A DNA stretch of 24,029 bases from Cyanobacteria bacterium P01_A01_bin.123. GTDB lineage: Bacteria > Cyanobacteriota > Cyanobacteriia > Phormidesmidales > Phormidesmidaceae. The DNA lies in NCBI GenBank assembly GCA_039815185.1, contig JBCBZT010000083.1:1-24029 (forward strand), given 5' to 3'. Below are positions 4,705-22,441 of the stretch, in pieces. Under the pieces are notes generated by a model. That model was not told the DNA's origin. It did not search any database and saw only the letters and a list, made by a program, of their open reading frames with translations. The translations under genes were made by a program, and so were the position numbers. The stretch's first letter is position 1. Each line of letters starts with the position of its first letter.

Positions 4705-5250
4705 ATGAAAATCACCTACTCTGTAGCCACAAGTCTCGATGGTTTCATTGCAAGAGAGGATGGAGATGTCTCTTGGCTAGATGAAATGAATATCGACACC
4801 AATGAAACAGGTCTGGAGGCGTTCTTCGCCAGCATCGATGGTCTCGTAATGGGGCGTAATACTTACGACTTTGTCTTCAACTACGGATCTTGGCCGTACG
4901 AAGATAAACCGACATGGGTGTGCACACATAGTGATCTTCAACCGCTAGACGGTGCGAACCTGATAGTGGTTGGAGATATCGACAAAGTCATCAGTGGGGC
5001 AACCACAAGCGGCCTTGAACACCTCTGGCTGGTCGGTGGCGGACGGCTTGCATCTGCCTTTTTGGCGAAAGGCTTGATTACAAATGTGAGCATTGCCGAG
5101 ATGCCAATCAAATTGGAATCAGGAATACCGCTTTTTTCTGATTACAAACTAGAAGATATCGTTTTCATAGAACGAAACGTCATACAAAAGAACGGCTTCA
5201 GGCAGATTGACATCGTCATAAAGAACAATCGCAACATCACAAACGAATGA
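4705..5250 (+). CDS. Dihydrofolate reductase-like (RibD C-terminal) family protein
   Basis: YSVATSLDGFIAREDGDVSWL...LVMGRNTYD...WPY...LWLVGGGRLASAF...GIPLF. Confidence 0.9.
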   Translation: MKITYSVATSLDGFIAREDGDVSWLDEMNIDTNETGLEAFFASIDGLVMGRNTYDFVFNYGSWPYEDKPTWVCTHSDLQPLDGANLIVVGDIDKVISGATTSGLEHLWLVGGGRLASAFLAKGLITNVSIAEMPIKLESGIPLFSDYKLEDIVFIERNVIQKNGFRQIDIVIKNNRNITNE

Positions 5251-5348
5251 ACCGGAACCGCAAAAGCTGGGTTGGCGAGCTGTACTCGTTCATGCTAGCT
5301 CTCGACTTGGCTATCCTAATCTTTGCTTTGGCTGAACCGGAGGAGAAC

Positions 5349-6056
5349 ATGGGCTGTTTCGGTGGCGTAGGCTGTTTCGACTTCCAACGGTGGTGCAATG
5401 AGATCGTCCCTGCCCTTAAAATCGGCGAAGCCACGAGCATCGTTGCTGCGGAGATAGCAGAGCTTCGGCAGCAGCGGCGATGGGGCGTGAAGTTTCGTGG
5501 GCTTGGGGCTGTCTGTATGACTTTTGACCATGAGCTGTGTGATAGCCCCCTGGGTCGACTTTTCCGCGTCGATGAAAATGGCTTGTTTGTCGAAGACCAC
5601 AAGCCATTGGGGCGGACAGGAGGTTGGGGATACGAGGAGTTGGCCGATCTCGTTGAGCAACTGGCATCCACTTGCATCACAGAAGTTGAGGTGGTTGGTC
5701 GGACGTACCGCTTGCCGTGGTTACTTCAACCGTTGCACGACACTGACCTGACAATCAGTAAGGATCTTTTACTCCTGGCGCACAAGCTTGATACACAGGG
5801 TGAATTTTGGACCCACGGCAGCGGGGGTTACGGAGAGGGGATACATGGCTGGCTTGATCCGGAAGAAACGGCCTGGTTAGCGCACCTTCTCGATCAGCTG
5901 TTTGAATCGGCGGTATGGGGGCAACTGCCACATGATGACTACACGATCAACGAATCCCAAAGTAAGTTGCGGCAAGTGCAACGCGTTGCTAACTTATCAA
6001 CTAAAGCGGAAAGAGGCCTACTTTGGGGAGGAGACCTAGAGATCTTCTACCCATGA
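5349..6056 (+). CDS. Hypothetical protein
   Basis: The open frame runs from 5247, but the ATG at about 5349 follows a strong GGAGGAG RBS; no family recognised. Confidence 0.6.
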   Translation: MGCFGGVGCFDFQRWCNEIVPALKIGEATSIVAAEIAELRQQRRWGVKFRGLGAVCMTFDHELCDSPLGRLFRVDENGLFVEDHKPLGRTGGWGYEELADLVEQLASTCITEVEVVGRTYRLPWLLQPLHDTDLTISKDLLLLAHKLDTQGEFWTHGSGGYGEGIHGWLDPEETAWLAHLLDQLFESAVWGQLPHDDYTINESQSKLRQVQRVANLSTKAERGLLWGGDLEIFYP

Positions 6057-6860: not shown

Positions 6861-8318
6861 ATGCTCGACCTCACCCAACTCACTGGCAAACAGCAACAGT
6901 TCATACAGCTTTTGCAGCAGCAGCCTCAAGTCAACAGTCTGCGATCGCTGTGTCACCAGCACAAGTTTGACTTTAACTTCATCAAGGGATTTCTGCTGAG
7001 TGGCGTGTTAAATGACTACGTCCAATGGCAAGAAAATGCTAAGGAGACCTGGGGGCTGACGCCGAAGGGGAAAGATGCCAATGGGGTGATTCCTGGTTTC
7101 GCACTAGCCGAAAAGTTGCTCAGCGGGATAACTGATGTCCCCACATTGCAGGCAGACCTGGGCGATCGCTTTAGTATCAACTACGGTGCCCTCAAAAAGG
7201 CAAAAGCCGTTGATCTCAAAGCGGAAGGAAACACCAAAATCGTCACAATTCTCAACCCCAGCGTCTTAGAACAATACCGTCAGCGTCAGCAAGTCTTCAG
7301 CGCCCTTTCCCAAAACCAACCCATTACCCATTACCCCATTGCCCATCTAGACTGGCTCGAAGGCCAAGATTACATCGAATCCAAAGTTGAAACCGACTAT
7401 ACGTTGACAGTGTTGCCGGGACTGAGCGCGATCGCGATCCAACCCGTCGTCACTAACCTCACCAGCGATCTAATCTTGTCTGGCAAATGGCAACAGGTGA
7501 GCTTCAAACCCTACGACATCCATGCCCCCGCCCCTGATGTGGCCTATGGTCGCCCCACTATCTTGACCCAATGCATTCAGCACATTCGCGACATTTTCCT
7601 CAACATGGGCTTCGATGAAATGTCCGGCTACATCGTTGAATCCGCCTTTTGGAACTTCGATGCCCTGTTTACCCCTCAAGACCACCCCGCCCGCGAAGTC
7701 CAAGACACCTTCTACCTCGCCAATCCTAAAACCGTTCCTTTACCCGAGGATGAAATCCTGGTAGAACAGGTCAAACAAGTCCATGAAGCGAACTACGGCG
7801 GCGAGTGGAAAGCCTCGGAAGCCAGCCGCGCCATTTTACGGGCACACACCACAACCTCCACCGCCCGCAGGCTGAACCAAATTCAAGGCAAAAATGGCAA
7901 ATACTTTTCCATCGATAAAGTCTTCCGCAACGAAACCGTCGATCGCACTCACCTGGCCGAGTTCCATCAAATTGAAGGGGTAATTGTCGGCGAACTGCTC
8001 AGCGTCCGCACATTGATGGGGTATCTGATCTATTTTTATGAGCGGCTTGGCTTCAAAGACCTCAAGTTCAAACCCACCTACAACCCCTATACAGAACCAT
8101 CTCTGGAGGTTTTGGCCTATCACCCCCCCAGCGATCGCTACATCGAAGTCGGCAATTCTGGTCTATTTCGTCAAGAAATGCTCAAGCCCCTCGGTTGTGG
8201 TCGCAAATCGACTGTGGCTTGGGGGCTAGGGTTAGAGCGAATTGCCATGCTGCTTTACGGCGTTGAAAAATTGTCAGATTTGATTGGGCCAGACATTCGC
8301 CTTGATACTGCACCATAG
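6861..8318 (+). CDS. pheS: Phenylalanine--tRNA ligase alpha subunit, archaeal/eukaryotic-cytosolic type
   Basis: 485 aa with a long N-terminal extension; VESAFWNFDALFTPQDHPAREVQDTFY, LRAHTT, KYFSIDKVFRNETVDRTHLAEFHQIEG, KPTYNPYTEPSLEV, EVGNSGLFRQEML, AWGLGLERIAM. Confidence 0.95.
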   Translation: MLDLTQLTGKQQQFIQLLQQQPQVNSLRSLCHQHKFDFNFIKGFLLSGVLNDYVQWQENAKETWGLTPKGKDANGVIPGFALAEKLLSGITDVPTLQADLGDRFSINYGALKKAKAVDLKAEGNTKIVTILNPSVLEQYRQRQQVFSALSQNQPITHYPIAHLDWLEGQDYIESKVETDYTLTVLPGLSAIAIQPVVTNLTSDLILSGKWQQVSFKPYDIHAPAPDVAYGRPTILTQCIQHIRDIFLNMGFDEMSGYIVESAFWNFDALFTPQDHPAREVQDTFYLANPKTVPLPEDEILVEQVKQVHEANYGGEWKASEASRAILRAHTTTSTARRLNQIQGKNGKYFSIDKVFRNETVDRTHLAEFHQIEGVIVGELLSVRTLMGYLIYFYERLGFKDLKFKPTYNPYTEPSLEVLAYHPPSDRYIEVGNSGLFRQEMLKPLGCGRKSTVAWGLGLERIAMLLYGVEKLSDLIGPDIRLDTAP

Positions 8319-8335
8319 AAAGAAGGAGTAGTGCC

Positions 8336-8563
8336 ATAGCCCAAGTAAAGGTATTTTACGAGCCAGAGATGGAATTGCTCAACGTTTTTTGGCAAAGTTC
8401 ATGCCCTGACCAACTCTGTACCGAACTGGGTGATGGTGTCATTCTTATCAAAGATGTCGATAGCGGCGAACCCATTGGGATGGAACTGCTTGCCTACAAA
8501 CCTGAAGATGCCCGTTTCGACTCCGTTAGTGTATGAATTGGAACTCTTAAAGCGATTATCTAG
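8336..8563 (+). pseudogene. DUF2283-like small protein, degraded (not in ORF track)
   Basis: After an AAGGAG RBS the frame starts ATA instead of ATG: (I)AQVKVFYEPEMELLNVFWQSSCPDQLCTELGDGVILIKDVDSGEPIGMELLAY...SVSV, TGA at 8534-8536, then IGTLKAII TAG. Confidence 0.65.
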
Positions 8564-8740
8564 AAATGATGTTCTGCAAATCTATGGCCTCAGCTCCATC
8601 GACGATCTCCTCGAAAAACTCCCCTCTCCATCCTCAACCTCGAACTCGCCACCTAAGAAAAGTAAGGCGAGTCCGTTGTTGGCCTATGGAATCCTACACA
8701 ATCACACTAGATACGCTCAAACCTAACAAAGGAAAATGCT

Positions 8741-8947
8741 ATGAATACTACCGATGTCAAAGAGCAGTTACTGCAAGCAATTGATCAGACCCCCGCTCCT
8801 ATTTTGAAAGAAGTATTGGACTTTTTGCTATTCGTCAGAGCCAAAGAACTCCAGAAAGAACAACTCGAAGTCAGTTTACTAAGTGAACCCCTACTAGCTG
8901 AAGAATGGCTTACCCCTAAAGAGGACGAAGCATGGCAGCATTTGTAA
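8741..8947 (+). CDS. DUF2281-like putative antitoxin
   Basis: 68 aa, EVLDFLLF...SEPLLAEEWLTPKEDEAWQHL; overlaps the toxin start. Confidence 0.8.
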   Translation: MNTTDVKEQLLQAIDQTPAPILKEVLDFLLFVRAKELQKEQLEVSLLSEPLLAEEWLTPKEDEAWQHL

Positions 8948-9264
8948 AAGGAGATGTTGTTATTGTTCCGTTTCCATTTTCCGATCTGAGCAATGCCAAG
9001 CGTCGGCCAGCTCTCGTTATAGCAAGTTTGGGACGTCAAGATCTTATTCTTTGTATGATCACCAGTCAAAGCTCCAATGACCAGTACATAACTGCCATCT
9101 CTAATAGAGATTTTGTCTCAGGTACGCTCAACAGAGATAGCTATGTCAAAGCCAACCGCGTATTCACAGCTAACGAAAGAATCATCACTTATATAGCTGG
9201 CACCTTGGTACCTGACAAAGTTAATGAGGTAATTTCAAATTTGATTACTATTTTGCGTACTTAG
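8932..9264 (+). CDS. mazF: PemK/MazF-family toxin (RNase)
   Basis: KGDVVIVPFPFSDLSNAKRRPALVI...ILCMITS. Confidence 0.9.
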   Translation: MAAFVKGDVVIVPFPFSDLSNAKRRPALVIASLGRQDLILCMITSQSSNDQYITAISNRDFVSGTLNRDSYVKANRVFTANERIITYIAGTLVPDKVNEVISNLITILRT

Positions 9265-9396
9265 CTCAAGAGGTAATTTCATAGAATCGCATGCATGCAT
9301 CATTAATCTGCAACTCGTTGAATCACTGATACAAGTTATTAAATCCTTTTCAGCCCGTGAACAAACCTTGATGCTCTATAGTGCCCCCACTTTGCC

Positions 9397-11055
9397 ATGC
9401 CAACCGTTACCTTCCCCCTGGAATATCTCCAACAGCTAACCGCCACACCGCCTCAGCAGCTTGCTGAGCAAGCATTTGAATACGGCTTAGATGCCGCCCT
9501 GTTTGACCACACGCTGGAGGTCGAGGTCACGGCTGAGCGCCCCGATCTACTTGCGGCTGAAGGGTTTACCCGTGCGATTAATATCTATAACGGTGCGTCT
9601 CGGGAAGTGCCGGAGCAGTTAGAAGCTTCTGGACGACGGGTAACTGTGGATCCATCTGTGCAGTCCCTCCGCCCGCATATTGCTGCCCTCGTGGTAGAAA
9701 ATGCCAACCTCAAAGCAGGTGGGCTGGACGTGCTGATTCAGTTTCAAGAGAAAGTTACCCAGACCTTTGGCCGTCAGCGCAAGAAAATTGCCATCGGCGT
9801 TTACGACCTTGATCAAATTTCTGGCGATTTAGTTTACACGGCATTACCCAAAGATGACCTCAGTTTCATGCCGCTCAATGCCAGTCAATCGATGACGGCG
9901 GCGCAAATTTTGGCTGAGCATCCCGTGGGCAAGCTCTATCGCCATACCCTACCGGAGGGCACAAGGGTTCCCATACTGCAAGATGCAACGGGTCAGATCT
10001 TGTCGATGCCGCCGATTATCAATGCCGCCGGGGTAGGCGAAGTGGGGGCTAACACGCGCAGTTTGTTGATTGATGTCACTGGGATCTTGCCCCAGACCGT
10101 GTTGGACACCTTGAATATCTTGGCTCATAACTTTATTGACACTGGGGCAACGGTGAAAACGGTTGAGATTCTGATGCCCCAAGGTGCGTTGACTACGCCC
10201 GAGTTAACCCGCAAGCCAATTCAGTTTTCTGCCAAATATCTCAATGAGATTATGGGGAGCGCCATTCCCAAACATGCGTTGGGTAATTACCTATCGCGGA
10301 TGGATTTGGATGCGACCGGCACCGATATCGTGTTGATCCCCACCTATCGCACGGATATCTTTAGCGAAGTGGATATTGCCGGGGATTTGATGGTGGCTTT
10401 GGGGATCGAAAACTTGCCCCCTGATCTGACGGCGATCCAGTTTTATACCGGCGATGCCAATCCGCTGAAAACTTTTGTGTTTCGCGTGGGAGATTTGGCC
10501 CAGCGCATGGGGCTTATGGAGGTCAAAAGCTTTGTGCTCACCGATCCGGATTTGTTGGCACTATTTTCTAACCCCGCAATCCAAACGGGTAATGCGAAAA
10601 GCCGCACCTACAGTGCTACCCGCACGACGCTGCAAGCTGGGTTGCTTGATATTTTGTCGCGCAATATTAATGCACCCAAACCGATCAACATTTACGAAAC
10701 GGGAGAAGTACTGCGTATTAATGCCTCAAAGGTGATTGAGGAAACCTGCTGCTGGGGCTTTGCTAGCTTAGACGCGCGGGCTTCATTTACCTGGGCAAAA
10801 TCCTATGTGCAAACGCTGCTGAAAGCCCTCAACATCGACTACACGCTGATCCCCTGTGAGGCACAGCACCATATTGTGGGACGGGCAGCTACGGTGATAA
10901 TTGACGGTAAAGCCGCTGGCCAATTTGGCGAAATTGATCCCACCGTGCTGCATCACTTCTCGTTTCCAGAACCCGTCTGCGCTGGGGAGTTGGATTGTGG
11001 TGTGCTGATGTCTTACGCTTCACCAGTGGCGTTGCCAGAATCTCACGTGGGTTAA
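9397..11055 (+). CDS. pheT: Phenylalanine--tRNA ligase beta subunit, archaeal/eukaryotic type (short; no B2/B8 domains evident)
   Basis: 552 aa; MPTV start, EVTAERPDLLAAEG, QEKVTQTFGRQRKKIAIGVYDLD, ILSMPPIIN, LLIDVTG, PTYRTDIFSEVDIAGD, GQFGEIDPTVLHHF. Confidence 0.93.
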   Translation: MPTVTFPLEYLQQLTATPPQQLAEQAFEYGLDAALFDHTLEVEVTAERPDLLAAEGFTRAINIYNGASREVPEQLEASGRRVTVDPSVQSLRPHIAALVVENANLKAGGLDVLIQFQEKVTQTFGRQRKKIAIGVYDLDQISGDLVYTALPKDDLSFMPLNASQSMTAAQILAEHPVGKLYRHTLPEGTRVPILQDATGQILSMPPIINAAGVGEVGANTRSLLIDVTGILPQTVLDTLNILAHNFIDTGATVKTVEILMPQGALTTPELTRKPIQFSAKYLNEIMGSAIPKHALGNYLSRMDLDATGTDIVLIPTYRTDIFSEVDIAGDLMVALGIENLPPDLTAIQFYTGDANPLKTFVFRVGDLAQRMGLMEVKSFVLTDPDLLALFSNPAIQTGNAKSRTYSATRTTLQAGLLDILSRNINAPKPINIYETGEVLRINASKVIEETCCWGFASLDARASFTWAKSYVQTLLKALNIDYTLIPCEAQHHIVGRAATVIIDGKAAGQFGEIDPTVLHHFSFPEPVCAGELDCGVLMSYASPVALPESHVG

Positions 11056-11621: not shown

Positions 11622-13118
11622 TTACAACAGCGCATCGCCACGACGGTAAAGCTCACGGGCATAGTCTGTCCAAGCCCCCTGACCCCAGTAGCGGAAGCAG
11701 CTTGTTTCCACCAGCAACACATACAGGAGTGCTTCTTGATATTCCCGCGTTTGGGTAACGTTGGGATCTGCCTGTACCGCCCGATCAAACTTGGCGTGGA
11801 ACTTGGCGCTGAGCTGATTCATGGGCTCCAGCACGTTGTCGTAGCCGCTGACCCAGCTGAGGTCATTGGTCCACGAGGCCCCATCCATAGAAAACTGATG
11901 GTCGGTTTGCTTCAGATCTGCGATCGCGGCCTCTACCGCCTCCGGTGTGGCTTGTTCCGGAGTTACCTTGGCCCAAATCTTGTGTTGGTGAACCGCTTGG
12001 CAGGTGGGATAGTCTTCGGGGCTAACGCCAGCCGCTTCAATCAACTCTAGATATTCAGTCCCGTTGAGACCGACTACCCCCTCAGCACCGCGACCATTTT
12101 GCTGAATGTCATCCCACACGGGCATAAACCCACGGGGAAATTCATTCATCATCACGCCGCCATTTTCACCGTCGGCAATTTGGGTCACACAGGACGGGAT
12201 CACTTTGCCGTTGCCAATTTCCTGACGTCCGCGCCCCAGGGCTTCATGGTATGGCTGCATTTGAGCCACCAGCTTAGTGTCTGATCCCTGGGTTTTGATC
12301 AGGGCGGTAATAGTGACCGTTTCCCCACGGGAGTTTCGAGCCATCAGGGTATTGGGGACATACTTGTGTTCGTGCCAAATACCAGAACCGTCGAGACGCT
12401 CCACGGAATGTTCTTGTACCATCAGCCACTTATAGCCGCAGTCTTTGAGCGCCTTGATGTACTCATACAAGGTGTCGGGGTGGTTGGGCAGGTGCATTTC
12501 CGGGGGTGAAAAACCCTTGACCCGCTTCAATGCATCGTAGCCAAATAAGGCGGCGAAGTAATGCTGCCAAGCTTGGATGTGCAGCTTAATATCAGGAATC
12601 GGGGTAGAGGGAACTACAGCGTGACTCCACATTGTGCCCAGCCATTCGACATAGGGTTGATATTGGCGATCGCAGGTGATTTTCTTCAAATTGTCTAAGA
12701 TATCGCTGCGACCCATTTGGCGCAGACCCCACAGCAAATTGCCAGAATAATCCAGCATAATGCGGGGATTGCCGCCTTTGGCCACGATCTCAGGGATGAA
12801 GTCACCCATGCGGCTGTAGCACCAGGCAAATACCCCTGCATTATGGTTGTCGCCATCGTGGGGATGCTCAAACATGTGCTGCAAGTTGCAAATGTTTTCG
12901 CCATTACTGCCAGCGGGGATCGTCGGCTGGTGCATGTGTAGGGCACAGGCAAACCCGGCTGTAATCTGGTTGAGGTTGAGATTAGAGTCGTTCAGAAAGA
13001 CGGGATCGTTGTGATTTGTCACCGATGCGATCGCGGCTTCTGCACCACAGATCATCGGTAAGCCAGATTGAATTTCCTCCAGTTGCGGTAACTGATCATG
13101 GAACGCGGTTGCAACCAT
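11622..13118 (-). CDS. Glycoside hydrolase family 57 protein
   Basis: ALHMHQP, LDYSGNLL, GFSPPEMHLP, IADGENGG, ETSCFRYWG motifs. Confidence 0.9.
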   Translation of the reverse strand: MVATAFHDQLPQLEEIQSGLPMICGAEAAIASVTNHNDPVFLNDSNLNLNQITAGFACALHMHQPTIPAGSNGENICNLQHMFEHPHDGDNHNAGVFAWCYSRMGDFIPEIVAKGGNPRIMLDYSGNLLWGLRQMGRSDILDNLKKITCDRQYQPYVEWLGTMWSHAVVPSTPIPDIKLHIQAWQHYFAALFGYDALKRVKGFSPPEMHLPNHPDTLYEYIKALKDCGYKWLMVQEHSVERLDGSGIWHEHKYVPNTLMARNSRGETVTITALIKTQGSDTKLVAQMQPYHEALGRGRQEIGNGKVIPSCVTQIADGENGGVMMNEFPRGFMPVWDDIQQNGRGAEGVVGLNGTEYLELIEAAGVSPEDYPTCQAVHQHKIWAKVTPEQATPEAVEAAIADLKQTDHQFSMDGASWTNDLSWVSGYDNVLEPMNQLSAKFHAKFDRAVQADPNVTQTREYQEALLYVLLVETSCFRYWGQGAWTDYARELYRRGDALL

Positions 13119-18198: not shown

Positions 18199-20832
18199 TT
18201 AAACATCAAATTCGTCCAATGAGAGGGAGGGCAAGTCCGCAGGCGTAACCCGACGATTACAAATGACCCGCTCACTCTCACGTTGGGTGGGCATATCAAC
18301 CGCGATCGCAGCGACTTGTATCTCCAGGCAATGCATAGGAACCGTCACCCTCAAGGTCGTTTCGACACTCCCCTGACCATTGGGTTCTAGATACATCAAC
18401 CAACGGGGTTCATCGACCAATGTCCGAGTTTGGCGATCGCTGACCCATAGCTTAACGTAAAGCCGTTGATCGCTATCGGGTAACACAATCCGAATCGGTA
18501 ACTGCTGCCCAGCCTTAAAATCTCCATCGGGTAGAAAAACCTGAGGTTGCGGAATCATCCATTGATCATCCCTGTCAGTAAATGAAGGTTGGACTTCATC
18601 AGGAAGCAGCGCATCAGGTAGCCCCGCGATCGCAGGAGTATCCTCATAAATGACAACCTCATCGGCAAAGCTTGCTTCACCGTAATCCATGCCATTATCA
18701 GTATCCAAAGACGGGGATGTATGCAGCGGGGCCGCATCATCGAGGGGAAGCGGATCAACTGCCGGAGACTGCTCTGGAGGCACAACCACCTCACTGGCCG
18801 CCATCGCCGAGCGCAGCTCATGGGACGCTTGATAGCCTTCAATCGCAAACGCATTCAGACGATCCCAAAAGCGGGTTTGCAAATTCAATGCTTGAAATGA
18901 AGATTCTACCTGAGCCTTAGTTTCAGTTGGCGTATGGGGAGTCTCTGGCAAATTCGAGTCTAAGGCAGTGTCGGATTCAGCCGTCAAATCATTATCCAGC
19001 AATAAATATTGATCGGTATCAGCACTCAGTTCTGTGTCGCTAAGTTCTGCATCGTCCACAAAGGCAAACGCCCGATCTAACGGCGGCTCATCCCAAAGAT
19101 GGGGATCTGCTTCCTGGGCAACCAAGGCTGCATCTAGATCGTCATCAATTGAGCGGAAAACTGGGTTAGCAGCAGCGACGGGCTCTGAGGGGAGTGGATC
19201 TATTGGATACTCAGCGTCTAAATCTCCATGGGTTAGGGCTTCTGATGTTGGTGATAACGCTTCATCTACATCTACCAAAGAATTTGGGTCGAAGGAGTCC
19301 AGGCCTGATTCCTGAGAATTGCTTAAGTCAGGAGCATCGTCACTTGACTGATCAGGTTGAGGAGACTGAGGCGATCGCTTACGGGCAAACCCAGGCAGTT
19401 CTAGCGACTTGGAGCGTAAGTCACCCCCACTATTCCCCATTTCTGGCAACGGGTCATGAGACGCTAAAGGCTGACTGTTCGTCGCAGTTGGGCGGGTAGT
19501 TGCAGGTGTCGTCTTCGATGGCAATGGCGGTAAAGCCAGAGATGCTGTCTCAGCGTCACCAAGCTCAGACTGATAAATTTGAGGCGGCATGATCCAACCC
19601 AGGGCGGGTAAGAGAGAGGACTGCGCCTCTAGACTAGGCAAATCCCCAACGGGCAACGTCAACTTAACAGATTTATTTTTGGACGGCGCGGACGCTGCGG
19701 GCAACAAAACAGAATCGGCCGCTTCTGTCGGCAAAAGGGGCATGACAACCGAATCCACATCTGAGTCATCTTGTGCTTCCGCTTGATCTGCAATCACATC
19801 CAATAATTCATTCAGGGCGATGGTGACTGTAAAGGCCTGGGTTGCCCAGATGTAAGACTGTTGAACTTCAAGACTCGACTGCACCATGACTTCCCCCAGC
19901 ACCAACCGGGTATCTAAGGCATCAGGCAGGTGAATCTCAACTTCAAAGGCTTGATTCGGATCGTCAGTCAGAGGATGTTGAACCTGTTTAATCAGTTCAG
20001 CCGTTTGGGGATCGCGTAAGTAAACGTGCAAGCATAGGGATAGTGGGGATGTATCTATCCCTTGTTCTGTTTCTCCCTGTTCTGCACCCTCCTCATGTTC
20101 TACCCTCGAAAAGGGATGTTTAAACTGCCCAGCCAGGGTAAATAAACGACCATTAGGCAGCACATAGGCCGTTTGCTGAAGCTGGAGGCAAATAGATTCA
20201 GTTGGCGCCACTTCTGACTCAACGGGATCCAGATCAGTCGGGACAACACTATCCCGATGATGATTAGCCTGATCCTCAGCAAGCACAGGACTTAAATCTT
20301 GGTGGACTGTGCTAAGGGGGCTTAGATCATCCACAGGTGATTCGAACGGATTGGCAACTGGCTCCGTATCAACAACATCTGCTGATTGCCGTGAAGCTTC
20401 TGGTATAGTTTCTGGCGCTGCGGCAACTCCCCCTTGCTCTGACCCTCGATCATCCCAATCAGCTGGATCCTCTTCTCGACTTTGGGACAACACCTGGAGC
20501 TGAACGGAATATTGCCAACCCTCGCCCAGAATATCTTCCATCAAATCGCCACCAATACAGCGCAGTTCCCAAGCGCCAGGCCTCAAGTGGGTGAAGGGCA
20601 TGACGACAATTAGCCCTTCCGGATTGGTTTGATGATGGCGTTTATGTACCCGGCGCTTAGGGGGCATCTGGTCAGGCAAGATATGGCTAATGCGAATTTC
20701 CACTGCAGTGCTGATATAGCTTGAGTGGGCCATCACCCGATATCGCCCTTCCAAAATCTCTGCCGTAGAAGATTCCAGGGGCAACCAGGTGCGATCGCCT
20801 TCTTGCTGTAATAAAAACTCCCATTGATCCAT
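18199..20832 (-). CDS. Large acidic hypothetical protein (cyanobacterial type)
   Basis: About 877 aa; folded-looking N-terminal (WEFLLQQEGDRTWLPLE...EGRYR), middle and C-terminal (VKLWVSDRQTR) segments joined by long D/E/P/S-rich linkers. Confidence 0.8.
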   Translation of the reverse strand: MDQWEFLLQQEGDRTWLPLESSTAEILEGRYRVMAHSSYISTAVEIRISHILPDQMPPKRRVHKRHHQTNPEGLIVVMPFTHLRPGAWELRCIGGDLMEDILGEGWQYSVQLQVLSQSREEDPADWDDRGSEQGGVAAAPETIPEASRQSADVVDTEPVANPFESPVDDLSPLSTVHQDLSPVLAEDQANHHRDSVVPTDLDPVESEVAPTESICLQLQQTAYVLPNGRLFTLAGQFKHPFSRVEHEEGAEQGETEQGIDTSPLSLCLHVYLRDPQTAELIKQVQHPLTDDPNQAFEVEIHLPDALDTRLVLGEVMVQSSLEVQQSYIWATQAFTVTIALNELLDVIADQAEAQDDSDVDSVVMPLLPTEAADSVLLPAASAPSKNKSVKLTLPVGDLPSLEAQSSLLPALGWIMPPQIYQSELGDAETASLALPPLPSKTTPATTRPTATNSQPLASHDPLPEMGNSGGDLRSKSLELPGFARKRSPQSPQPDQSSDDAPDLSNSQESGLDSFDPNSLVDVDEALSPTSEALTHGDLDAEYPIDPLPSEPVAAANPVFRSIDDDLDAALVAQEADPHLWDEPPLDRAFAFVDDAELSDTELSADTDQYLLLDNDLTAESDTALDSNLPETPHTPTETKAQVESSFQALNLQTRFWDRLNAFAIEGYQASHELRSAMAASEVVVPPEQSPAVDPLPLDDAAPLHTSPSLDTDNGMDYGEASFADEVVIYEDTPAIAGLPDALLPDEVQPSFTDRDDQWMIPQPQVFLPDGDFKAGQQLPIRIVLPDSDQRLYVKLWVSDRQTRTLVDEPRWLMYLEPNGQGSVETTLRVTVPMHCLEIQVAAIAVDMPTQRESERVICNRRVTPADLPSLSLDEFDV

Positions 20833-20986
20833 AGCCCTCATCCCCGCAGGAGATCGCTGCCGTGTCGCGAAAAATTACCTAGATGCCGAAGTATAGCGGT
20901 CATCTTAACGGCAATCGCCTGAATCAACAAATCCTTTAAGGGTTGTTTGACAAACGGGGCTAGGGTCGTTGACGAATTGACGTCAA

Positions 20987-21508
20987 TCAGGTGCTTGATC
21001 TAGATTGCCAGTAACGTCTGAAATAGACTTTTGCCGCAACCCACAAAGACAGTTGATAGTGCTCTGCCAACAGCCAAGCCACCATACTGCCATGTAATAC
21101 CAGGGTTAACCCAGCCCAAATTTGCGGTAGTGACTGTCCCGGACTATCCACTAGGGGTGGAAATATTTGGGCTGAGAGCCAAACTAATCCAGCTGGAAAA
21201 ACGACTAAGGCAACAGCAACAAGCCAAACCATAAAGGAAAGACTGAAGTCGGGTTGAACCGCAGATCTCCAGTGTCGCCCGAGCCAGTACCAAGTCATGG
21301 GTTGGGTGCTATCAATCACCTGGACAGATTGCTTGGCTAAGTTAGCCGACAGCATGTGACGACAAAAGTTACAGGCAAAAGCATCCATCAGCACTAGGGC
21401 TTCAATCTGGCCATGACGACAAACAGGGCACGGATAGGTATGATCCAGTGACAAACGTCGTGAGGCACCGTTTACCGATGAGGCTAGGGAATTTCTAGAG
21501 CTCGACAT
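20987..21508 (-). CDS. Hypothetical membrane protein with N-terminal zinc ribbon
   Basis: CPVC...CNFC followed by two hydrophobic segments. Confidence 0.75.
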   Translation of the reverse strand: MSSSRNSLASSVNGASRRLSLDHTYPCPVCRHGQIEALVLMDAFACNFCRHMLSANLAKQSVQVIDSTQPMTWYWLGRHWRSAVQPDFSLSFMVWLVAVALVVFPAGLVWLSAQIFPPLVDSPGQSLPQIWAGLTLVLHGSMVAWLLAEHYQLSLWVAAKVYFRRYWQSRSST

Positions 21509-21558: not shown

Positions 21559-22359
21559 CTACAGCAAGCCAACCAAGGATGCCCCGCCCACGATCCTAGA
21601 ATATTCACGACCGTTATATTCCAAGATCACGATAGGCTCTTGGCCATTAGCCACGTCAATCTGCTTAACCAAAACTTGGCCAGCCGCAATCCGTTCCCCA
21701 ACCTGGGCATAGCGGCTCCCCTCGTTGGGTACCTGCACAATAGCGCTAACGCGATCGCCCAATTGCACCACCCCAGTCACTTGAATCGAATCGGCTAAAG
21801 AGCCTTGGGAAGCTGGGGGAGTCTGAGGGACGTTGATCGTTGCTATCGTTGGGGATGGCGTTGGAGCCACAGCCACAACTGTACCTTGAGCCGGAGCAGG
21901 CAAGCTTGGCAAGGCAGGTGGTGTAGGCAAGGGAATCAAGCTAATAGACTGGCCCGCTGCAGGGTTGAACGGTGTTGCTGGTGCCCTATCTGGCGCTGCT
22001 GCCATGGTTTGAGCCGTGGTCGCTCTGGGGGTTGTAGGAATAAAGGGTAAAGAAAAGGGATCTTGTCGCCCAGCTGAAATTGAGTTAAGCCGCTGGGGAG
22101 CGTCTGTCGAGCGAACAATCACAGGATCAGCAGCTGAGGGCAAATCAGCCGAGAGCTCAGCTGATTCTGCTACCAAAGAACCGTCAAAGGAGGCCGTTCC
22201 TTCAATAACGATTTTTTCCTCGCCAGCCTCAGCCTGCCGTGACGCAGGGGTCCCGTGACGACTCGATATCAATCCAACCGTGCCCCCAATCGCAGCCGAG
22301 CCTAAAATACCAATCCCCAAACCAATCGCAACTTTCTTGTACTTCGCTTCCAGTTTCAT
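21559..22359 (-). CDS. Pro-rich membrane-anchored protein, possibly PilP/GspC-like
   Basis: N-terminal TM, GRQDPF motif, Pro-rich linker, C-terminal VTGVVQLG...AIVQVP...RYAQVGERI beta domain. Confidence 0.55.
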   Translation of the reverse strand: MKLEAKYKKVAIGLGIGILGSAAIGGTVGLISSRHGTPASRQAEAGEEKIVIEGTASFDGSLVAESAELSADLPSAADPVIVRSTDAPQRLNSISAGRQDPFSLPFIPTTPRATTAQTMAAAPDRAPATPFNPAAGQSISLIPLPTPPALPSLPAPAQGTVVAVAPTPSPTIATINVPQTPPASQGSLADSIQVTGVVQLGDRVSAIVQVPNEGSRYAQVGERIAAGQVLVKQIDVANGQEPIVILEYNGREYSRIVGGASLVGLL

Positions 22360-22441
22360 AACCCATCCCCCACAATCCTGATTTAGGCATGACTCAGGAT
22401 AGCCAATTCTCACCAAATCGGATCATTCTCAGGGACAACAG

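Follow-up and report, generated by a model that had tools for sequence, protein, structure and literature searches.

As a rule, phenylalanyl-tRNA synthetase (PheRS) is considered a marker present in one copy, and the textbook case of its interdomain replacement is that of the spirochaetes. According to the account of Andam and Gogarten (2011, PMC3191353), an archaeal-type PheRS related to that of the Thermococcales replaced the bacterial form in Spirochaeta, Borrelia and Treponema. Duplicated synthetases are very frequent, with 25,913 cases in 26,837 genomes as reported by Rubio et al. (2015, PMC4787780), who also discuss the Anabaena threonyl-tRNA synthetases (ThrRS) T1 and T2, two enzymes for one amino acid of which one is used under particular stress. 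Here we analyze a 24,029-nucleotide stretch of DNA (hereafter, the window) from Cyanobacteria bacterium P01_A01_bin.123 that codes for both subunits of a PheRS of the archaeal/eukaryotic type: pheS for the alpha subunit (485 amino acids, aa; positions 6861..8318, + strand) and pheT for the beta subunit (552 aa; positions 9397..11055, + strand). An earlier interpretation made from the DNA letters (the sequence-only reading) had placed the two open reading frames (ORFs) at these coordinates, on this strand and with these lengths, and both were recovered exactly so. The genome also encodes a bacterial PheRS; the archaeal-type PheRS has been added, not substituted, and its affinity is other than in the spirochaete case.

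The identity of the two genes as PheRS alpha and beta of the archaeal/eukaryotic type is secure from profile and structure comparisons. Both subunits exceed the cut-offs of the archaeal equivalog models in the archaeal versus bacterial profile search that the sequence-only reading had proposed as a check. The alpha subunit reaches 408.2 bits on the archaeal PheS equivalog NF003210 (cut-off 350), its residues 6–479 aligning with positions 3–485 of a profile of 496, and it also matches TIGR00468 (303.5 bits, cut-off 237.45) and the class II core PF01409 (265.4 bits, residues 218–481). Because this core begins only at residue 218, the N-terminal extension of about 220 aa that had been noticed in alpha is real, and the near full-length alignment with NF003210 indicates that it is homologous to its archaeal counterpart. 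Alpha thus consists of a tRNA-binding N-terminal extension (about residues 1–217) followed by a class II catalytic core (218–481). Its translation contains all of the motifs that had been singled out (FWNFDALF, KYFSIDKVFRNE, YNPYTEPS and EVGNSG), although YNPYTEPS, taken at the time as a eukaryote-like hallmark, is not specific to eukaryotes, being present in DPANN-like and other archaeal sequences too. The beta subunit scores 368.7 bits on TIGR00471 (pheT_arch, cut-off 282.65) along residues 1–538, and just 106.5 bits on TIGR00472 (pheT_bact), below its threshold of 402.65. Pfam recognizes CLM and B5 in beta, together with weak B1 and B3_4 matches, and neither tRNA_bind nor FDX-ACB, corresponding to a B1, a B3/4 editing domain, a B5 and a catalytic-like module, without B2 and without B8. 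Among solved structures, alpha is closest to human FARSA (3l4g_A, 275.7 bits) and beta to Pyrococcus horikoshii PheRS (2cxi_A, 159.8 bits) and human FARSB (3l4g_B, 158.6 bits), whereas bacterial structures reach ≤112 bits for PheS and ≤37 bits for PheT; with such scores, neither subunit falls within bacterial PheRS.

The window is one entire contig (C21, 24 kb) of an 8.09-Mb assembly (G000) that consists of 133 contigs and has an estimated contamination of 5.99%, which would leave room for an artefact, the pair having come from a chimeric or contaminant assembly, or else for a replacement of the bacterial enzyme in the manner of the spirochaetes. Against this, the contig itself bears cyanobacterial core genes (ndhC/K/J, rubredoxin, ycf48 and psbE), confirming the cyanobacterial setting that the sequence-only reading had recognized, and the best 120 alpha homologues are 57–96% identical and, when they have organism names, all cyanobacterial. 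Moreover, the near-closed relatives (5/5) hold all four genes, namely bacterial and archaeal-type pheS and pheT, mostly on one large contig and with hundreds of kb between the two archaeal-type genes; in relative G030, a single contig (C5) carries the archaeal-type pheS plus the bacterial pheT. In G000, the bacterial pheT is found on contig C31 (818 aa, 766.8 bits on TIGR00472), with tRNA_bind (B2), B3_4, B5, CLM and FDX-ACB (B8) domains, and the bacterial pheS on contig C65 (341 aa, with the motif FPFTEP). These lengths, motif and domains agree with those given in the sequence-only reading for bacterial PheRS, and the presence of both genes elsewhere in the genome bears out its claim of a second PheRS. 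Bacterial pheT also scores above cut-off in 40 of 41 genomes (that of the window and 40 relatives), every carrier of the archaeal-type pair included, the sole exception being a genome that is 69% complete. Bacterial PheT does not appear to degenerate in carriers, where it scores 746.7–782.6 bits, within the range of non-carriers of the same family (744–803 bits). Chimeric assembly and xenologous replacement are therefore both excluded, and we give them virtually no probability as explanations of the pair. As a separate observation, in a relative with a single-contig genome (G509:C1:2730054-2732487) the bacterial pheT match is broken into three successive open frames, with both archaeal-type genes intact; a sequencing-error frameshift or a decaying gene may account for the split.

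The pair is a long-retained, clade-level trait and not a strain-level accessory. The best 120 alpha homologues are all already annotated as PheS, and the named ones, which are all cyanobacteria, include Nodosilinea, several Leptolyngbya, such as strains PCC 6406 and BL0902, Phormidium tenue and Prochlorothrix hollandica. All full-length clade members fall under a single representative (765.7 bits) when the library is clustered at 50% identity, and the full-length match that follows reaches 314.4 bits. The pheT_arch model finds matches above cut-off in 8 of the 41 genomes, and just below it in two more. In a broader survey of the family, with a match at E ≤1e-40 as criterion, archaeal-type pheT was detected in 64 of 173 genomes (62 above cut-off) and in 8 of 19 genera, with frequencies of 51/53, 4/5, 2/3, 2/6 and, in four genera, 1/1. 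It was absent from genera of the family sampled 14, 22, 46, 5 and 4 times, and from all 400 other genomes drawn evenly across the phylum. The description of the locus as an accessory region thus applies to the mobile DNA that surrounds this copy, but not to the gene pair, which is conserved across the clade. Archaeal-type PheRS in cyanobacteria appears to be undescribed as a phenomenon, as our literature searches found no published description of it, although public records already give the genes the names PheS/PheT.

Phylogenetic trees of both subunits place the cyanobacterial clade among archaeal/eukaryotic enzymes, bearing out the interdomain transfer suggested by the sequence-only reading. 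A genome scan for homologues yielded, among the matches listed, at least 5 cyanobacteria, at least 71 archaea and at least 4 bacterial metagenome-assembled genomes (MAGs) with names. In a FastTree phylogeny of 142 alpha rows, the cyanobacterial clade (stem 1.06) adjoins a set of 32 rows with SH support of 93, and 8 of the 10 members of this set that were looked up bear eukaryote names. Such a sister relation to eukaryotes was not upheld by the LG+C20 trees (support 60). The alpha tree reconstructed with IQ-TREE (LG+C20 with posterior mean site frequencies) contained 66 rows, comprising 10 cyanobacterial sequences, 8 named eukaryotes, 4 metagenomic/Woesearchaeota sequences and 44 non-cyanobacterial loci hand-picked from 75 to keep every label, with 31 omitted. 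In this tree, the cyanobacterial clade is maximally supported (100/100) on a stem of 1.69, and lies within a 31-row group (100/99) that also includes eukaryotes, Iainarchaeota, Micrarchaeota, Aenigmatarchaeota, Njordarchaeota and a few others. The eukaryotic alphas form a group of their own (support 99), so that the source of the cyanobacterial genes lies outside the eukaryotes sampled. Whereas the motifs had been read as most like those of eukaryotes, the clade joins Woesearchaeota-like sequences in this tree, with a weak support (72/57). The beta tree (51 rows, without eukaryotes) recovers the cyanobacterial clade with a support of 100 and a stem of about 1.6–1.8, on the side of Micrarchaeota, Aenigmatarchaeota and Njordarchaeota (97). 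These topologies, with stems of similar length for the two subunits, fit one joint transfer of both from an unsampled or much-diverged archaeal or stem-eukaryote-like donor. The pair falls in a robust group of eukaryotic, DPANN and Njordarchaeota enzymes and not inside eukaryotes, which narrows down its origin only in part.

As judged from its residues, the enzyme looks functional. Across 18 aligned alphas from cyanobacteria, archaea and eukaryotes, 33 columns are invariant, including R356 of motif 2, R460 of motif 3 and Q370, and at least 90% of the sequences share F368; motifs 2 and 3 and the adenylate-binding residues are intact. When only columns conserved at ≥90% in non-cyanobacterial rows are considered (56 rows for alpha, 42 for beta), the window proteins keep 54 of 61 in alpha and 51 of 60 in beta. 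For the editing site, we relied on ten positions reported to form the P. horikoshii beta editing pocket (Sasaki et al. 2006), the letters of which agree with the 2cxi_A sequence in our alignment. Nine of the ten residues are identical in the window beta subunit (Q117, E118, R128, L160, L194, S203, N209, D226 and T228), each of them being kept in 7–9 of 9 cyanobacterial rows. The tenth, R223, corresponds to E215, at a position that varies in archaea too (R 18, K 13, T 6, E 4, Q 1; n = 42). The weak Pfam B3_4 score (20.3 bits) might be read as decay of the editing domain, an idea that we rejected in view of these conserved pocket residues; an unrelated archaeal-type beta (L089) also lacks a B3_4 match, so that a weak score is no sign of decay. 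The retention of catalytic and editing residues likewise led us to reject a catalytically dead pseudo-synthetase pair. The archaeal-type pair is, in addition, under purifying selection, as shown by ratios of nonsynonymous to synonymous substitution rates (dN/dS) of 0.065–0.19 in comparisons with seven relatives, given only where dS could be estimated as many pairs are dS-saturated. The dN values of the archaeal-type genes (0.21–0.35 for alpha, 0.24–0.41 for beta) are close to those of the bacterial genes in the same genome pairs (0.16–0.23 for pheS, 0.22–0.32 for pheT), and the archaeal-type/bacterial dN ratio is near constant (0.95–1.6), which fits a long vertical co-divergence with the housekeeping PheRS.

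No tRNA is encoded in the window. G000 has 60 tRNAs, among which there is one tRNA-Phe(GAA), with an A73 discriminator, a bacterial-style D-loop and U20, and this gene is 99–100% identical between carriers and non-carriers of the archaeal-type pair. A dedicated or co-evolved tRNA can thus be rejected and, as there is no private tRNA, the two PheRS must share one substrate. Other tRNA-Phe-like sequences were seen in this group of genomes. One relative (G007) has a further tRNA-Phe, 89% identical, on a contig of 582 bases, which is uninformative. Many copies restricted to the 3' half of tRNA-Phe (about positions 27–73, up to 100% identical) occur in G000, on contigs C112 (five places, 1–23268), C70, C71 and C100, as well as in G002, G008, G011, G013, G014, G019, G020 and G026; ARAGORN found no tRNA in the interval 17000–24000 of contig C112. 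These half copies could be attachment-site duplications left by tRNA-Phe-integrating elements, or a tRNA-derived repeat. G000 also contains a tRNA-like gene (C124:26363-26436) with a 6-base anticodon loop for which ARAGORN left the anticodon undetermined, and which resembles Gln/Pro tRNAs.

We consider it likely that the window encodes a working (alpha-beta)2 PheRS that was acquired once, has been kept alongside the bacterial PheRS and charges the tRNA-Phe that both enzymes share. The two subunits would form a heterotetramer of the archaeal/eukaryotic type. Both would have been acquired together, a single time, by an ancestor of the Nodosilinea/Leptolyngbya-type filamentous group, from an archaeal donor (DPANN-like or of a lineage not yet sampled) close to the base of the eukaryotic enzyme, and would have been inherited since then mostly vertically, next to the resident bacterial PheRS and not in its place. 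The archaeal-type PheRS would charge the only tRNA-Phe(GAA) of the cell, of bacterial type, and the B3/4 site of its beta subunit would still hydrolyze Tyr-tRNA-Phe made in error. Aminoacylation in vivo is what we infer from the sequence features of the pair. Why a cell should keep two such enzymes is a more tentative matter. The pair may be maintained for a different discrimination of amino acids, as a conditional or quality-control isoform, an idea by analogy that we find possible but doubtful. As summarized in the review of Klipcan et al. (PMC3275996), human cytosolic PheRS has an approximately ten-fold lower affinity for meta-tyrosine (m-Tyr) than bacterial/mitochondrial PheRS, and edits Tyr-tRNA-Phe but not m-Tyr-tRNA-Phe. 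A better rejection of m-Tyr at the synthetic site would provide an oxygenic phototroph with a second enzyme able to keep Phe-tRNA-Phe clean as oxidized aromatics accumulate. In its most far-reaching form, two structurally unrelated PheRS would act on one tRNA-Phe, the archaeal-type one differing in how it rejects oxidized or analogue aromatics (m-Tyr, ortho-tyrosine, dihydroxyphenylalanine or a PheRS-directed toxin) and thereby keeping translation accurate, or the cell alive, under photo-oxidative or chemical stress, and it would moreover descend from an unsampled lineage near the root of eukaryotic PheRS. We hold this whole combination to be rather unlikely; if true, a pre-eukaryotic form of the cytosolic PheRS would be preserved inside bacteria.

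Several observations weigh against these proposals. The m-Tyr data come from the human enzyme and not from the cyanobacterial clade. G20 is an identity element for yeast PheRS, and the tRNA here has U20. Clade-wide changes affect otherwise near-invariant positions, seven in alpha and nine in beta (e.g., H233T/P234I and T328A in alpha), so that an altered or non-canonical specificity is possible, and the very long stems of both subunits are compatible with a spell of relaxed or redirected selection. The donor lineage is weakly placed: the nearest alpha neighbours, a Woesearchaeota protein and its metagenomic relative, group with the cyanobacteria at just 72/57, eukaryotes join this trio at 83/92, and the beta tree lacked eukaryotes, two incomplete matches among the 44 non-cyanobacterial betas having been dropped. 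Finally, gene context lends no support to the proposed role, as neighbours differ between genomes, and no upstream 8-mer is common to at least 4 of 9 alpha regions or to at least 3 of 5 beta regions, giving no hint of a shared stress regulator.

The surroundings of the pair in the window bear the marks of mobile DNA. In this genome, the two genes are separated by a spacer of 1078 bases (8319..9396, + strand) that houses a toxin-antitoxin module. It contains a MazF/PemK-type toxin of a type II toxin-antitoxin system (110 aa; 8932..9264, + strand; PF02452, 38.6 bits for a cut-off of 23.1, residues 6–108), preceded by a 68-aa ORF (8741..8947, + strand), whose last 16 bases also belong to the beginning of the MazF gene. 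For this ORF the sole likeness, to DUF2281, stays below threshold (16.4 bits for a cut-off of 26.5), and its position makes it a candidate antitoxin. At the beginning of the window are found the end of a group II intron (1–163, − strand; Rfam RF02001, D1-D4, 125.9 bits), cut by the contig end, and an IS5-family transposase (373–1164, − strand; NF033580, 208.3 bits), repeats which probably account for the contig break here. The neighbours also comprise two GNAT acetyltransferases, a glyoxalase/bleomycin-resistance-fold protein and RibD_C, and several ORFs without Pfam or NCBIfam match at E ≤0.01, located on the − strand at 11622–13118 (498 aa), 18199–20841 (880 aa), 20987–21508 (173 aa) and 21559–22416 (285 aa), and on the + strand at 5247–6056 (269 aa); the 498-aa and 269-aa ORFs remained without Pfam match even at an E of 1. 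A functional link of the pair with the flanking GNATs, RibD_C, the 269-aa ORF or MazF can be rejected, given that none of them has a homologue beside the pair in seven relatives. Rfam detected nothing but the intron end in the window, with no leader and no riboswitch, and a scan of the window for consensus promoters and terminators gave fewer sites than in shuffled sequence.

The survey of homologues and their neighbourhoods in cyanobacteria that the sequence-only reading had called for thus found homologues across the clade, but contexts that differ among 17 loci. At four of these (L016, L018, L019 and L033), alpha and beta form a directly adjacent pair with a gap of 36–162 bases, downstream of clpS-DUF2103-trm1 and on the same strand; in most of the remaining carriers the two genes are linked neither to each other nor to this cluster, besides which no neighbour family recurs in more than two of the 17 loci. 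The clpS-DUF2103-trm1 cluster is itself conserved in the family (L016 3383–5132, L033 3549–5531 and L115–L121). Trm1-type tRNA (m2,2G) methyltransferase is present in 25/25 family genomes of the 41-genome sample, carriers and non-carriers alike, and DUF2103 in 23/25, being missing from G000 and its genus mate G001, in which clpS and trm1 still adjoin. The cluster occurs without archaeal-type PheRS, as in L116 and L121, both from non-carriers, and the 75 loci from outside the cyanobacteria have neither trm1 nor DUF2103 in the vicinity of pheST. We consequently rejected a co-transfer or co-variation of the pair with Trm1 and DUF2103, and the adjacency at the four loci is probably an old chromosomal position and no functional partnership. 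The inhibitor resistance, different editing or non-ribosomal use that the sequence-only reading had envisaged gained nothing from these comparisons, which revealed no biosynthetic cluster or conserved partner favouring any of them.

Among these possible reasons for keeping the pair, the archaeal-type PheRS might be a spare enzyme that withstands some natural inhibitor of PheRS or analogue of Phe, either self-made or released by competitors, which we regard as improbable. The two enzymes are structurally very different, as the low scores of the pair against bacterial structures attest, so that an inhibitor of one PheRS could spare the other, and this copy is flanked by two GNATs, the glyoxalase/bleomycin-resistance-fold protein and the toxin-antitoxin module. 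Resistant duplicate synthetases accompanying some antibiotic pathways are, besides, a known theme. Nevertheless, scanning 22 ORFs of the window with Pfam and NCBIfam revealed no natural-product biosynthetic enzyme family, and in seven relatives neither the GNATs nor the other neighbours adjoin the pair; with no cluster and no conserved linkage among the 17 loci, a self-resistance synthetase linked to a biosynthetic cluster was rejected. To our knowledge, no natural cyanobacterial PheRS inhibitor has been described, and the retention in 51 of 53 genomes of one genus together with the clock-like co-divergence resemble a core function and not cluster-linked resistance.

A non-canonical job, be it the trans-editing of mischarged tRNA-Phe or the supply of Phe-tRNA for non-ribosomal use (N-terminal Phe/Leu addition, ClpS N-degron), appears very improbable to us, even if the conserved editing pocket, the clade-specific changes at otherwise near-invariant positions and the location of the pair directly downstream of clpS-DUF2103-trm1 at four loci would suit it, and even if whole PheRS can edit in trans according to the review of Klipcan et al. 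(PMC3275996) and a paper in Nucleic Acids Research. In the synthetic site, every catalytic column tested is intact, which is unexpected for a pure editing factor; the clpS-DUF2103-trm1 cluster also occurs without the pair, and the pair, in most carriers, away from the cluster. The pair could also be a redundant passenger, that is, a functional but selectively neutral duplicate undergoing slow loss, in keeping with its patchy distribution (8/19 genera of the family) and with the state of this particular copy, which sits in mobile DNA and is split by the toxin-antitoxin insertion. We see hardly any chance of this: both genes, although unlinked, are intact in the 62 genomes above cut-off and almost universal in one genus, dN/dS does not exceed 0.19 with dN near that of a housekeeping enzyme, editing and catalytic residues are conserved, and a neutral two-gene system would not outlast a divergence between genera that has brought protein identity to 60–72%. 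A working second PheRS, inherited vertically and sharing tRNA-Phe with the bacterial enzyme, is the reading that we retain.

The coexistence of bacterial and archaeal/eukaryotic-type PheRS through the divergence of several genera, under strong constraint and with one tRNA, amounts to a natural experiment that asks what a cell gains from two synthetases for a single amino acid, whether fidelity, stress or toxin tolerance. It also provides a test bed for how an archaeal-type enzyme recognizes tRNA-Phe in a bacterial setting, and PheRS pairs for engineering might be drawn from it. Those who use pheS and pheT as markers for the phylogeny or binning of cyanobacteria should take it as a warning. The placement of the clade near the eukaryote/DPANN/Njordarchaeota group bears, in turn, on the source of the eukaryotic cytosolic PheRS.

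Compared with the spirochaete PheRS, as far as the cited account describes it, the cyanobacterial pair is alike in being of the long-alpha/short-beta archaeal type, with both subunits transferred together and then inherited so as to mark a clade. It differs in that the cyanobacterial carriers examined all retain the bacterial enzyme, whereas the spirochaetes lost theirs, and in that the cyanobacterial clade groups with eukaryotes, DPANN and Njordarchaeota on a long stem, in trees that held no spirochaete or Thermococcales rows. Archaeal-type pheS is also carried by MAGs labelled Eisenbacteria (L089), Acidobacteriota (L091), Bradymonadia (L080) and Planctomycetaceae (L108). In the first three of these loci, beta either overlaps the end of alpha or follows it at a distance of at most about 150 bases, two of the beta ORFs being longer (about 600–650 aa), and L108 is without beta match. 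These bacteria thus resemble the cyanobacteria in having archaeal-type alpha and beta genes, but they form their own group among other archaeal lineages, far from the cyanobacterial clade (support 99 for alpha, 100 for beta), which suggests an independent transfer into bacteria. With the human cytosolic PheRS (3L4G) and the P. horikoshii beta editing fragment (2CXI), the window pair shares the domain architecture and nine of ten pocket residues; however, the two proteins are no more than about 45% (alpha core) and about 30% (beta) identical to archaeal enzymes, the cyanobacterial clade has its own substitutions and, unlike the human and P. horikoshii enzymes, the pair sits in a bacterial cell with a bacterial-type, U20-bearing tRNA-Phe. 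Finally, the Anabaena ThrRS T1 and T2, as presented by Rubio et al., are similar in that a cyanobacterium keeps two synthetases with different properties for one amino acid, but those two are both of bacterial type and can form mixed dimers, whereas the two PheRS of the cyanobacteria studied here belong to different structural types.

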